DNA of 27,915 nt. It comes from a virus (taxonomy: Duplodnaviria > Heunggongvirae > Uroviricota > Caudoviricetes). Below, in pieces: positions 18,001 to 24,000 of this stretch. The DNA is taken from the IMG/VR virus record IMGVR_UViG_641736226_000038; one strand, 5' to 3'. Position 1 is the first letter of the stretch. Every line of letters begins with the position of its first letter. Position numbers: made by a program.

Positions 18001-21000
18001 CGTGCCGGAACGTTACCTCACAGCTGATACTGAGGGTTTCCGGGTCCTCTGCGAGCGATTCTGGCTGTTCGGCAGCTGCATCGAGAGTCACAGGAAGTAG
18101 CTGGGGGCTCTCTGAAGAAGGTAATAGCAGCTTTCCCTCGCGCCATTGTTGTCGCCATTTGAACAACAGATTGGCGTTAATGCCATTTTCAAGAGCAAGT
18201 TTTGAGATGGATATCCCGGGTTCACAGGAGGCAGCAACGAGCTGCTGTTTAAATTCGGGAGGATAATTAGGGCAGCCTTTTCGCCTGCCGGGAGTCACAT
18301 TTTTCTGCATATCTGATACTTTGGTTCCCACTACTTATTTGGTGGACACCACTTTGTCTAATTCGTCAGATTCTGACCAGACGGTTCAGGATGTACGCTT
18401 ACACAGAATTGAACAAATTAGGAAAAGCAACAGCCGACAGCATTTCTAAAGGTCTCAATATTGATTTGAATGACGTCATTGATACGCTGTGGAAGTTGAA
18501 AAACCAGGGGATCGTAAAGGTAAAAAACGGCATCTGGCAGGCAGTAGAGGGAGTTGGAAGCAAAACAGATATTGATTCAGTTCAACCAGTTCAACCAGTT
18601 CAGCCAGTTCAGCCAGTGCAGAACAACATTATAGGTGACCTGCTACGTAAATCACGGAAAGAAGCGCGCCGCGCCGGGCGGAAACAGAAACGATGGGAGG
18701 GTGCATGTAAGGCGTTGCAAGAACTGAATAAATACCGTGACTTGATCAACGAATTGTCAGAGTGAACGTAGCGGGAATCCACGTCCTTTAGGGCGTGGAT
18801 GATATCAGGCTGTTGAAATACATGTAGAAAAGGAGCGCATACTATGGAAGTCAACTTAATGACCGAAAAAGAGGTTTCTGATTTGTTACAAAAAAGGCGC
18901 ACAGCTTTGTATAATTTGCGAAAAAAACACGGATTCCCGGAACCAGTACTTACTCATCCGGCGCGATATAGTCGTCAGGCCGTTGAACAATGGCTTAAAG
19001 CCGGAGGAATTAACCGAGCTGTTTAGCGTGCCAGAAAATTTTATCAGCATACAACTCATACGCATCTTTCTGTTCCGACAACCAGTCGTGTTTATTATAC
19101 ACGGCCATAACTCCCCCAAGTTCATGCCCCAGCATTTTTTCAGTGACGTGGGGCATAATTCCTTCCCCAGATAAATTCGTTACCAGAGAACGCCTAAAAT
19201 CATGCGTTCTCCATTCAGGAATATCAATTTTCTCCCTTAACTTTTTCATGTACAAATTAGCCGACGAACGATCAATAGGTTTATCTATTTCCTGCCCGGG
19301 GAATAGCACATCAAAACCCGCATTAAGCAATCTCTCGATATAAGGTTTAACCTGAGTGAATACCGGACGCCGGATAATATTCCCCATTTTTGAATGCTCT
19401 TTTGGGGTTGTCCAGACCAGATCTTCCATGTTGAACTCACTGGCTGTCGCGAGACGTAGCTCAGAAAGTCTGGCCCCCCATAGCAATAGCAATTGATGTA
19501 ACACCTTGTTGGAAGTAACTACTTTTGAGTTCTCCAGCGCCAGCCAAATTTTTGCCAGTTCCGTATAGGTAAGTACACGACTCCCTACATCTGGTTTTTT
19601 CCCAATATTCTTAACACTAAGCTTGAGTAATTCGCATGATGGGATTAACTGGCGGCTGATACACCAGTTAATAACTGAACGCAGTTGTAACAACAAAACA
19701 CGAGCCTTTTTCTTGTTGAGGCTTTCTTGTTTGTCAAAGAAACGAGCCCATGCCGATACTGGGATACTGGCAACTGGCGAGCCTTCAAACTGTGTGTACA
19801 TAGTGTTGTACACGACGGATCTGTAAAGCGTCTGTGTATTGGGTTTCAGATCAGTAACATACTTATCCCACCACTGATCCAGGCATTCTTTTAATGTCAG
19901 TTCGCCGTCACTGGGCGCAAAATAATTTTTAGGGTTAACTCCCTTCATGTACAATGCGCGCATCTCACCGACGATAACACGCGCGTCCTTCAGTGAAGTA
20001 GACGGATAGCGCCCGACAGTAAGACGTACTGGCTTACCATTCCAGCGATAACGGTACTGAAACGTGATAGTTCCTGCTGGAGTAATCCGCACACTTAACC
20101 CGTCACCATCGGTGATTTCAGCAGGGCCAGAGTAGGGTTTTCCGTAGAGGCCTCGTAGTTTGGTGTCGCTCAGTGCCAATGCTTTATATCCTGTACACAA
20201 GTTTATAATGTATTCTGTACTCAATATGTACGCATTAGCAAGTGAACAAAACACTTTTCAACGCAAAAGAAGATAATCAACCATGAACAAAAACAAACTT
20301 ACACCTTGATTTTAAAACCATAAAGACGGTATTATCAGTCATATGGTGAACAACCAAAATCAATACGCAACAATGTCCTCTTAGTTAAATGGATATAACG
20401 AGCCCCTCCTAAGGGCTAATTGCAGGTTCGATTCCTGCAGGGGACACCATTTATCAGTTCGCCTCCATCCGTACCAGTCCGCAAAATCCCCTGAATATCA
20501 AGCCTTCCGTAGATTCACAGTTCGTCATGGTTCGCGTCAGATCGTTGACAGCCGCACGCCATGACGGGTAAAAAGTGGATAAAATAATTTTACCCACCGG
20601 ATTTTTACCCATGCTCACCGTTAAGCAGATTGAAGCAGCAAAGCCGAAAGAAAAACCATACCGCCTACTCGATGGTAATGGCCTGTACCTTTATGTCCCT
20701 GTATCAGGGAAAAAGGTATGGCAGCTTCGCTACAAGATTGACGGTAAGGAGAAAATCCTGACCGTCGGAAAATATCCGCTTATGACTTTGCAAGAGGCAA
20801 GGGATAAAGCATGGACTGCGAGGAAAGACATCTCGGTTGGCATCGATCCGGTAAAGGCGAAAAAGGCTTCGTCTAACAACAATTCCTTTAGTGCGATTTA
20901 CAAGGAATGGTACGAGCATAAGAGGCAAGTCTGGTCAGCCGCCTATGCGACTGAACTTGCAAAAATGTTTGATGACGACATTTTACCTATCATCGGCGGC

Positions 21001-24000
21001 CTTGAAATTCAGGATATTGAGCCGATGCAACTGCTGGAAGTAATCCGCAGATTTGAAGATCGCGGGGCAATGGAGCGAGCCAACAAAGCACGCAGAAGAT
21101 GCGGCGAGGTTTTCCGTTACGCTATTGTCACCGGAAGGGCTAAATATAACCCGGCACCTGACCTTGCTGAAGCCATGAAGGGATACCGCAAGAAGAACTT
21201 CCCGTTTTTACCTGCCGACCAGATCCCGGCATTCAACAAAGCACTTGCAACATTTTCAGGAAGTATCGTATCTCTCATTGCGACCAAAGTTTTACGCTAC
21301 ACAGCACTAAGAACGAAAGAGCTTCGTTCCATGCAATGGAAGAACGTCGATTTTGAAAACAGGATTATCACCATCGAGGCCAGTGTGATGAAGGGACGCA
21401 AGATTCATGTGGTTCCGATGTCGGACCAGGTTGTTGAACTTCTCACTACGCTAAGCTCCATCACTAAACCAGTATCAGAGTTTGTTTTTGCCGGGCGCAA
21501 CGATAAGAAGAAGTCAATCTGTGAGAACGCTGTACTGCTTGTGATCAAACAAATCGGCTATGAAGGTCTGGAAAGCGGTCACGGATTCAGGCATGAATTC
21601 AGCACGATTATGAACGAGCACGAATGGCCTGCTGACGCTATTGAAGTGCAACTAGCACATGCCAACGGCGGATCTGTGCGTGGGATTTACAACCATGCTC
21701 AGTATCTCGATAAGCGCAGAGAAATGATGCAGTGGTGGGCGGACTGGCTTGATGGGAAGGTGGAGTAGTTATTACAACGATTCTTATAAAAAAGAAAAGC
21801 CTTGCACATATAGCAAAGCTTTTCACTTCTCAGGATTTCTTACACCAAGAAACCATCAACAATAACAAAATGCAATTATTATATGTTAACTACATATGCA
21901 TTTCATTAAAACCAATCATAAATGCTTATCATACTTTAATTGCTATAATTGATTGCCTTCTATTTTTTCAACTCGAGTGGTTGAAACATCATTCTTAAAT
22001 CCACTCCACCATTTTCTTAGCTTATTGTTTATTGGCTTTTCAAAAAACAAATACATCATTATTGATATAAATAATGAAGCAAACAGAGCCATTACTATAA
22101 ATTTAATTACACTTATAGCACCAAGACCAGAAACATTAAAGAACTTGCTCAATGTACTGATTACTATAGTATGGACCAAGTAAAATGAAAAAGAAGCATC
22201 ACCTAAAAGTATCATAACTTTATTTGATATTATTTTTGAAATAATACCACCATTAAACGAAAACACTAATATTGAAAAGGCCATTGATGGTATAAAAAGC
22301 GCATCATACTGTAATCCATTGCTATTTTGACTTTTTGCCACCATATAGACAGACATTAGGATAAAGACTACAGATGATATTTCAGCAAATGATAGAACTA
22401 AATATGACGGCTTTGACTTAAACTCAAAATCTCCGGCCTGATTGCTGCGGATTGTCTCTGCCAGCCTGCCTCGGTCAATCTCACGACCAGCCATCTTGTC
22501 CTGAACATTGAAGTAGTCAATCGGACCGAGAGCAGCCATCCCAAGGTGATAAACAAACTCACCAAACCCTGAAGGATTCTGCTGATACATCTGAGCAACG
22601 TTGTTAGGGTCAACACCGACGCGCGCCAGTTCCTTGGCGTTGTTTTGCAGCCATGATTGCATTGCTTCTGGAGACGAGGCCGCAAGGCGTGCGCCAGCCG
22701 CTAAGGTGCCGATAGAATTGCGCTGGTCTTCGTCTGCCCACTTCATACCAGACTGAATCTTCTCTAATTGACCAGGATATTTGGTCATCAGATCTCGAAC
22801 CTGCTGTCGATCGCCGGACTGGATGGCTGCCGCATATTCTTTTTGGAATGCAGCATCCGCTTCCTGTTGCTTTGCGGCTTGAGATGTTTGAGCGACACTA
22901 CCAAGTCCCTGCAACGCCTGAAGGCCGATGTTATTGCGACCTGAACGCTCCATTTCGTTGTTCTGGCGAATATAGGCCAACGCCTCACTTACATCACTTG
23001 CCTTTGGCGCATTTGAGTTTTGCCCACCGATACCAGCAAGAAAACCGCCTGAGTTGATTCCTTGTTGCCAAGTAGCCATATTCCCACCTTAAAACAATGA
23101 TCCAAGACCACCGATAACACCGCCAGCAAGAGCACCAATACCAGTCCCAATAACAGGAACTGCACTACCAATCATTGCACCTGATGCGGCCCCACCAATG
23201 GCACCTGTAGCAAAACTCTGTAGGCCTGAAGGCTTATTCGCATTTGCTGCCGATGCTGCCGCCTGCTGTTGATACAATTGGCTGACATTGTTAGCGTAGT
23301 TCTGTCCGGCGTTTGCCTGACCTGTAAGAGCACCAAGGCCGATATTTGCCAGATTGTTGTAGTTGTTCATCTGACCTGACAGCCAGTTTTGACCGAGTGT
23401 AGGTGCGATTGCTGCTAACTGGTTTCCTGTTGCTGTAGAGCCTAATCCACCCGTTGCCTCTGCTGCTGCCAGACTCTGATAGCGCGCCTGCCCTGCAAGG
23501 TCTTTATACTGCTGAGAGTTGTAATACTGGTTAAGCGCCTGACCTTGCCCCTGAAGAGAGGAAAGATTCTGCAACTGTGATACGTACTGCTGAGCGAGTG
23601 GCGTGAACGGTGCAAGGTTTTGCATGTTCGTCTGCCACATTTCACGCTGCAGTTCGATGCCCTTTTCAGTTGCGCGTGCCTGGGCTTTAGATCCGGAGTC
23701 GCTGCCGCCTTTCATATACCCATTCATGGGAAGCAATTTATTCTTGAAGCTTTCGCTAAGTACTAACATTTAATAGCTCCTCATATTTCGAACGAGGTAA
23801 TTGATAGAGGGTGATTCCTACCGGTTTTCCGTTACTCATGTACGCATCATCAAGGTGACCAACACGGGTAGCGCCAAGCAAACGGATAATTGCCCGTCCG
23901 TATTTGGTGGTGTCAGGAACCATGGTGATGCTGTTAAGGAATGGTGAGTTTTCGAGAAGCCATTTGCAGAATAATCGATGCCCTTGTAGTGCATATTCGC

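Follow-up and report, generated by a model that had tools for sequence, protein, structure and literature searches.

argW of Escherichia coli O157:H7 is used at both ends by two independent integrative elements

Which attachment sites have been used when a single tRNA gene stands between two integrase genes? This question is raised by argW, the gene for tRNA-Arg(CCU), in a stretch of 27,915 nucleotides recorded as a virus of the Caudoviricetes (IMG/VR record IMGVR_UViG_641736226_000038), the whole of which is referred to here as the window. On the left of argW (20375-20449, plus strand) lies a P4-like integrase gene, int (19010-20179, minus strand), and on its right intS (20611-21768, plus strand), so that the bracketing of the tRNA gene described in an earlier note, made from the sequence alone, was borne out. 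A query of 4 kb taken around argW matches E. coli strain FRIK1989 at 100% identity and, over 97% of its length, many O157:H7 genomes, including TW14359 and EC4115, likewise at 100%; to judge by its sequence, the window is from a clade-8-like E. coli O157:H7. The best explanation of the whole locus, which we hold with high confidence, is that a Stx2a phage is integrated at nucleotides 1-24 of argW and that an Sf6/KplE1-type remnant occupies its last 15 nucleotides.

In TW14359 the left integrase gene is the terminal gene of a lambdoid prophage of ca. 62 kb, which extends from yfdC to argW and carries stx2a. Comparison with an empty argW locus, as the earlier note had recommended, defined the core of this phage. 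Against K-12, which is free of the phage, homology of the window starts exactly at the argW 5' end, and the yfdC-argW spacer of K-12 bears no relation to the DNA upstream of 20374 in the window. When the yfdC-side junction of TW14359, the empty K-12 site and the window were aligned three ways, one common block of 25 bp emerged, TGTCCTCTTAGTTAAATGGATATAA (window 20374-20398); TW14359 has it at each end of the prophage, and K-12 has a single copy. At the yfdC-side junction the whole native spacer is followed by the block and then by phage DNA, and at the junction in the window phage DNA is followed by the block and then by the remainder of argW. Since this is the sole block common to both junctions and the empty site, the crossover core can be assigned to argW nucleotides 1-24 (GTCCTCTTAGTTAAATGGATATAA, 20375-20398), comprising the 5' acceptor strand, the D-stem along with the D-loop, plus, in this phage, the T at 20374. 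As the earlier note had it, the lambdoid element thus has its boundary on the 5' side of argW, and the tRNA 3' end is not its attachment site. Its proposal that the attachment site lies in 20180-20374, or at another site, gives way to a core inside the gene, with 20180-20373 as the P arm, and the repeat of 20255-20374 that it expected at the far prophage end is not the one shared in TW14359, which is 20374-20398. The argW gene of the window is intact and regenerated, and its first 24 nucleotides, together with everything upstream of them, are contributed by the phage or identical to phage DNA. Of the 5,426 complete E. coli genomes compared, 150 have matches to the phage arm, to argW and to the flank on the IntS side, and in essentially all of the others (ca. 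5,200) homology is lost at 20371-20374. One point weighs against this assignment: the far, yfdC-side junction is outside the window, the direct repeat having been seen in TW14359 and not in the source strain itself, and any exchange point within the 24 bp is putative. This same site is annotated in public records, as a 25-bp attL overlapping the tRNA 5' end in HQ424691.1 and as a 24-bp 'duplication due to insertion' in the LC6160xx series (e.g. LC616031.1), and a bioRxiv paper gives an att of 24 bp for the argW prophage.

The attP site was rebuilt by joining the P arm and core of the window to the P' arm of TW14359, which gave 1,225 bp. This sequence has a contiguous match of 1225/1225 in five records from four phages (vB_EcoP_phi345, phi346 and phi349, and vB_EcoS_P27, with two records), of which phi345, phi346 and phi349 were propagated on a K-12-type host, and it is found uninterrupted at 94-95.5% identity in Stx2 phage 86 (95.5%), phi296, phi419 and Lyz12581Vzw. 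The core is present in the attP of phage 86 and of phi24B and, with one mismatch, in that of Hafnia phage yong2. In the attP of the free phages, argW nucleotides 1-24 are followed by unrelated phage DNA, with neither argW nucleotides 25-75 nor intS. The circular excised form, for which PCR had been suggested, is therefore answered by the unbroken attP of sequenced virion genomes. The 25-bp core is absent beside the more distant integrases of Stx2a_WGPS6 (57% identity) and Klebsiella phage P12620-1 (51%), so that those elements use other sites. In Stx2a_WGPS6 (AP012539.1, 228-1578) the 57%-identical integrase gene is nevertheless convergent with an AlpA-family gene, which overlaps its 3' end by 20 bp; because this layout occurs there without the argW core, the convergence of int and xis is a trait of the wider integrase family and not of argW targeting. 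A separate feature of the P' arm is a GC-rich hairpin, GCATGCCCCG...CGGGGCATG, followed by TTCTTT, at the yfdC-side junction (TW14359 L003 7750-7790), ca. 113 nt from the core on the phage side. It could act as terminator for the last late gene as well as for transcripts from the displaced native argW promoter, although we make no claim to that effect; a simple terminator scan did not call it, its loop being longer than 8 nt.

At the opposite end of argW the right-hand element has the features of the Sf6/KplE1 type. IntS shares 97.5-98% identity with its counterparts in Sf6, CUS-3 and related P22-like phages, and in KplE1/CPS-53, Sf6, HK620 and CUS-3 (IntS/TorI) the argW 3' end is attL and intS is directed away from the tRNA gene, as in the window. 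In K-12, CPS-53 starts at argW nucleotide 61, and its other end is pawZ, where the last 15 nt of the tRNA gene, CTGCAGGGGACACCA, are repeated; the corresponding core in the window is 20435-20449. It is followed by the attL arm with the putative intS promoter region (20450-20610), ca. 96-99% identical to K-12 downstream of argW, and by intS (intC in O157), called 'prophage integrase IntS' in RefSeq. In many genomes homology to the window ends at 20449-20456. An IntS orthologue thus stands right after argW and in the same orientation, whereas the second argW 3' core (attR), which K-12 has at pawZ, is lacking in O157. No such copy was found in a search for 12-24 nt with up to one mismatch in the rest of the window and in the 20 kb downstream in TW14359, and for this reason the IntS element of O157 is considered a fixed, non-excisable remnant, from which the far att copy and most of the genes are gone. 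What follows intS is a set of P22-type ejection and needle genes, fused or truncated.

A chimeric open reading frame (ORF) at 21943-23079 (minus strand) belongs to this region. Its N-terminal 217 residues are those of a P22-type injectosome translocase (Inj_translocase), and its C-terminal ca. 115 residues are the end of an Acyl_transf_3 O-antigen-acetylase-like protein. As oac adjoins int in Sf6, this ORF has the look of a scar left by a deletion within the Sf6-like IntS remnant.

The regulation of KplE1 gives further context for the right-hand side, as its PintS promoter overlaps attL and is autoregulated by IntS and TorI (Panis et al. 2010, PMC2951348). The same authors describe the argW-intS arrangement as the common 'STI' tRNA-integrase shape and the divergent 'OD' shape as rare (PMC2951348); the left int and argW form the 'OD' shape.

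The two elements occur independently of each other. The left int and P arm are present in 208 genomes, and in only 150 of these is the IntS-side flank present too. In the laboratory lysogen WG5::PA2 the phage, int and argW are followed directly by dsdC, and in O111:H8 08-4347 by the csc region, both without IntS, while K-12 carries the IntS element (CPS-53/KplE1) without the left phage. Moreover, de novo phiPA8 lysogens of MG1655 have been confirmed by PCR at argW. These results indicate that one tRNA gene is used at both ends by two independent integrative elements, with two cores that lie 36 nt apart at opposite ends of argW, each served by its own distantly related integrase. The earlier description of the locus as a tandem integration hotspot was right in that the site is used repeatedly, but 'tandem' is inexact for two different cores at opposite ends of a gene.

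Two other readings of the locus were considered. It could be the case that a single continuous prophage, integrated at the argW 3' end, carries both integrases and holds argW as cargo or as an internal feature, and the presence of the two integrase genes within 2.8 kb and their co-occurrence in 149-150 genomes would fit such an arrangement. However, the excess of genomes with the left int and P arm over those that also have the IntS flank, the lysogens without IntS, and K-12 with IntS but without the left phage all speak for two elements, and virion genomes join the P arm to the far late-region end without argW nucleotides 25-75 or intS. The possibility of one continuous prophage, which the earlier note had named as the finding that would overturn its reading of two separate elements, was rejected on the basis of the four occupancy states observed, and we give it next to no credence. 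A phage att contained wholly in 20180-20374, within the yfdC-argW spacer and leaving the tRNA gene untouched, would agree with an intact argW and with upstream sequence made up entirely of phage DNA. It is nevertheless highly improbable, given that 24 of the 25 bases of the only block shared by the junctions and the empty site are inside argW, that the yfdC junction retains the full native spacer together with argW nucleotides 1-24, and that the free-phage attP passes from these same nucleotides into unrelated phage DNA; this intergenic site was rejected because the far junction has no repeat of any part of 20180-20373. The integration of the phage at the 5' end of argW and of the IntS element at its 3' end is therefore retained.

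As regards the genes themselves, argW is the only tRNA gene identified in the window by ARAGORN, and it aligns with K-12 argW at 75 of 75 positions. An ORF scan rendered 18844-19026 (plus strand, 60 residues), 19010-20254 (minus strand, 414 residues from a GTG) and 20575-21768 (plus strand, 397 residues from a GTG), the second and third of which are shortened to the coordinates given above by the RefSeq starts. The left protein is a tyrosine integrase of 389 residues, read from a TTG, with the P4-like architecture of Arm-DNA-bind_3 (PF13356) and Phage_integrase (PF00589) and with the catalytic motifs GARLSELR, HDFRRS and LGH...VYNKH in alignment with phi24B Int; IntS has the same two Pfam domains plus Phage_int_M. 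Identity between the two integrases is ca. 29% and confined to the arm-binding domain. The gap between int and argW is 195 bp from the TTG at 20179, or 120 bp from the discredited GTG at 20254, in agreement with the 120-200 bp estimated before, and the RefSeq start of IntS is 161 bp past the tRNA end. The 60-residue protein is the Stx2a prophage's Xis, an excisionase or recombination directionality factor, and is encoded by the final gene of the leftward early operon. PHROG labels both large proteins as integrase and the small one as 'excisionase and transcriptional regulator', the latter is annotated as excisionase in AP012534.1 and LC710660.1, and in NCBIfam neither the left Int nor Xis matched a specific family. 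The AlpA-like character attributed to Xis by the earlier note is no more than approximate: it matches HTH_17 (PF12728), while the Pfam AlpA family stayed below the threshold used; the convergence of xis and int that the same note described, with 3' ends overlapping at 19010-19026 in a manner different from lambda, was confirmed by the ORFs as an overlap of 17 bp. At least 80% of 18300-22300 is carried by 149 of the 5,426 complete E. coli genomes, and hence the arrangement of the locus is not due to chance.

The left module is of the phi24B type in its integrase kinship, its inverted int with a convergent xis and its shared 24-bp core. In phi24B (HM208303), int (236-1405) and xis (1389-1571) have the sizes of 1170 and 183 nt, the 17-bp overlap and the TTG start that are found in the window. 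Int is 97% identical to phi24B Int over 389 residues, Xis is 93% identical to phi24B Xis, and the P arm is ca. 99% identical to phi24B bases 1-235; the phi24B attP carries GTCCTCTTAGTTAAATGGATATAA, as the window does. The window differs from phi24B in being a resident O157:H7 prophage with an intact stx2a and another immunity/replication region. Int-dependent integration and Xis-dependent excision have been published for phi24B, and the activity of the module in the window is supported indirectly by the contiguous attP of virion genomes and by the laboratory lysogens at argW.

Work on phi24B has established that its int is inverted with respect to that of lambda, has its own promoter and is free of CI repression, that xis is under pL control, and that Xis functions experimentally as an excisionase (Fogg et al. 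2011, PMC3064807). In the same study, mapping of the transcript 5' end by rapid amplification of cDNA ends showed the 1245-bp int ORF predicted in silico to be wrong, since transcription starts 46 bp past its GTG and translation is initiated at a rare TTG (PMC3064807). The rejected ORF corresponds to 19010-20254 of the window, and transfer of the phi24B data would place the pInt transcription start at ca. 20208 and the int start at 20179, matching RefSeq. On the other hand, the lambda-type int-xis cassette, with co-directional genes, int expressed from pL and pI, and sib retroregulation, is not what is found in the window, where the genes are convergent; a dedicated pInt has been published for the phi24B orthologue.

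The phi24B crossover site has been reported to be of 24 bp, with attP measuring 350-427 bp and attB 62-93 bp, and with no requirement for integration host factor (IHF) (Mohaisen et al. 2020, PMC7581858). The phi24B studies (PMC3064807; PMC7581858) mention neither argW nor a tRNA, and in a literature search phi24B and argW were rarely named together, their co-mention being incidental where examined. From the comparison of sequences made here, the primary phi24B attB is equated with argW nucleotides 1-24, which would link the 'unusually long, asymmetric' attB of the literature to the tRNA gene and its promoter region.

The geometry of int and this tRNA gene recurs well beyond E. coli, in many genera of the Enterobacterales. 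A scan of one genome per species identified 33 loci that encode relatives of the left Int. In all 18 full-length loci at 67-91% identity a tRNA-Arg(CCT) gene is divergent from int. Two partial matches, at 83% and 57% identity across the 240-250 N-terminal residues, share this arrangement. Across the 20 loci, 171-204 bp, and in most cases 192-196 bp, separate the start of int from the 5' end of the tRNA gene upstream of it; the genera represented are, among others, Erwinia, Enterobacter, Pantoea, Brenneria, Xenorhabdus, Providencia, Tatumella, Salmonella, Morganella, Proteus and Rouxiella. One 76%-identical locus has no tRNA gene in the mere 208 bp of upstream sequence available, and the remaining relatives, all of them at 63% identity or less, have no adjacent tRNA gene. 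A similar use of a tRNA gene (tDNA) has been described in Klebsiella, in which islands with integrases of clade I.d are inserted at the 5' end of tDNA arg2A (bioRxiv 10.1101/2020.11.02.365908). Their site is the 5' acceptor half, D-stem and D-loop, with the element upstream of the tDNA, like the left element, and in some strains both ends of a single tDNA are occupied, each by its own island, an arrangement like that of argW here. These islands are, however, different elements in another genus, and the locus of the 51%-identical Klebsiella phage integrase is without the E. coli core. The left element has the geometry of a 5'-end/D-loop sublocation in its core, its divergent integrase and its position upstream of the gene. 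Among the sublocations of Williams (anticodon loop, T-loop and 3' end), the 3' one, with a core in the 3' part of the tRNA and the element downstream, describes the IntS element and not the left one.

Integration at the 5' end of argW leaves the native promoter, together with a 24-nt stub of the gene, at the yfdC side, and because it is stranded there a replacement would be needed for the regenerated gene. When the P arms of 21 related elements were aligned, the pattern TTGNNN-18-TANNNT was present in 21/21, with its -35 hexamer starting at -69 from the tRNA +1 (at -68 in one element), while the 18-nt spacer has freely diverged; in the same position window the pattern appears in 2% of shuffled sequences. 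The copy in the window, TTGATT-18-TATTAT (20306-20335, plus strand, facing argW), was also reported by a consensus scan, and a precursor transcribed from it is predicted to keep the cloverleaf fold with a free leader of ca. 32 nt. This candidate sigma-70 promoter is probably an element-borne replacement promoter for argW, possibly a new detail. Findings that weigh against it include the 18-bp spacer, which is suboptimal for sigma-70, and a promoter-like site in the opposite direction at 20338-20309, also given by the simple scan. The native K-12 argW promoter, TTACCC-17-TATACT as read by eye, went unflagged in consensus scans, and no claim is made on it. There are precedents in SXT, which integrates at the 5' end of prfC and supplies a new promoter or 5' end. 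Likewise, islands specific for dusA (PMC4482086) displace the native promoter by 5'-end integration and must supply a replacement, as proposed here for argW. SXT and the dusA islands target protein-coding genes; in the present case a tRNA gene is targeted, and the replacement promoter is putative.

It can also be the case that the conserved pattern is an architectural or protein-binding element of the intasome, and that argW is silent in lysogens or transcribed from elsewhere. We regard this, the main alternative, as rather unlikely. The distance of -69 is invariant in 20 of the 21 elements although the gap between int and the tRNA gene spans 171-204 bp, and such a fixed distance from the core is more intasome-like, as promoters tolerate a variable leader length; moreover, TTGAT read on the opposite strand is similar to WATCAA, one half of the IHF consensus. 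A silent argW might be tolerated, as the gene may be dispensable, given that tRNA-Arg(UCU) can read AGG, and the phage brings tRNA-Arg genes of its own. Nevertheless, the conserved positions are exactly the key ones for sigma-70 (TTG of the -35; T1, A2 and T6 of the -10) in spite of the diverged spacer, integration of phi24B is reportedly independent of IHF, and, according to the Islander description, restoration of the target gene is the general rule for elements that integrate into tDNA. A replacement promoter carried by the element remains, on this evidence, the probable function of the pattern.

Other conserved sequences in the P arm may be bound by Int. Mining of attP for short repeats gave many AT-rich near-repeats, of which only those conserved across genera were kept. 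Three TGTAC boxes of the form (C/A)TGTAC(A/T/G)C, at ca. 20191-20199, 20215-20223 and 20226-20234, and a GCAAGTGAAC box at ca. 20239-20248 are located in the stretch from the int start to ca. -125 relative to the core, are conserved in the 21 elements of many genera, and overlap the pInt region published for phi24B. They are candidate arm-type Int sites, and if they were so, autoregulation of int would be implied.

Taken together, the left element is built as follows. Its Int is a P4-like tyrosine recombinase of the heterobivalent kind, transcribed away from att by a promoter of its own, and its Xis is a small helix-turn-helix protein encoded at the end of the pL operon and convergent with int. 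The attP is composed of a 194-bp P arm by int, the 24-bp core (argW nucleotides 1-24) and a P' arm by the last late gene. Recombination with argW leaves a promoter-bearing 24-nt stub of the gene at the yfdC side and regenerates the full gene at the int side, with upstream DNA that is now of the phage. Strand exchange may take place in the D-loop, with the two halves of the D-stem as inverted core-type sites; the TGTAC boxes may be arm-type sites that overlap pInt, and the pattern at -69 to -40 may be the promoter that keeps the regenerated tRNA expressed. On the right, the IntS of the Sf6/KplE1-type remnant uses the last 15 nt of argW.

A broader statement, which we consider evenly balanced between true and false, is that all phi24B-type elements (in E. 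coli, Salmonella, Pantoea, Erwinia, Proteus, Xenorhabdus and others) target the D-arm of tRNA-Arg(CCU), each with its own sigma-70 promoter at -69 to -40 driving the regenerated tRNA. Were it true, this D-arm would be a fourth tDNA 'sublocation', and lysogeny by a Stx2a phage would rewire the expression of a tRNA for the rare codon AGG, with a longer leader and a regulation unlike that of the native promoter, so that translation of AGG-rich phage or virulence genes could be affected. As it stands, argW is a clean example of a 75-nt gene with two non-overlapping attachment sites for distantly related integrases, at which independent stacking is possible. The Stx2a site at argW, the 24-bp att, the inverted int of phi24B and the use of the D-loop or 5' end of tDNA in Klebsiella are already published or annotated; the small additions made here are the explicit identification of the phi24B attB with argW nucleotides 1-24 and the comparative evidence for a conserved promoter-like element that would replace the displaced one. 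A Stx2a phage at argW is a marker of clade 8, a high-virulence clade of O157:H7, and argW occupancy serves for strain typing, being scored in the literature with yfdC and intS primers, and correct annotation of the junctions therefore has practical value.

The same locus, junctions, int and att are found in other Stx2a prophages of clade-8 O157:H7 (TW14359, EC4115 and PA2/PA8/PA28; gamma and delta subtypes), as well as in O145:H28 and O111:H8. The FRIK1989 copy differs from the other clade-8 argW prophages by an extra insertion of the IS66 family of insertion sequences and by a mosaic early region. In this copy stx2A and stx2B are ca. 28 kb from argW, and the immunity/replication region differs from that of TW14359. 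Directly upstream of stx2A the prophage has its own tRNA-Ile gene and two tRNA-Arg genes (TW14359 L003 45210-45459; FRIK1989 L048 9864-10115), so that the phage both rearranges a host tRNA-Arg gene and brings in further ones. Beside a cI-like repressor gene, at 1-1238 of the window (FRIK1989 5586873-5589292), there is a restriction-modification pair consisting of an Eco57I-type methylase, interrupted by the window start, and a BsuBI/PstI-family endonuclease (285-1238); as the pair is missing from the matching region of TW14359, the early region is mosaic. The IS66-family element (15962-18401), absent from TW14359, has three ORFs on the minus strand (15998-17536, 17586-17933 and 17930-18331), is bordered by an 8-10-bp duplication, CACAGAATTG, and lies inside the 5' end of a prophage DUF1627 gene. 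Its end provides this gene with a new in-frame ATG at 18391, so that an ORF of 124 residues remains (18391-18765, plus strand), whose product contains a short tandem peptide repeat of four PVQ units, SVQPVQPVQPVQPVQ.

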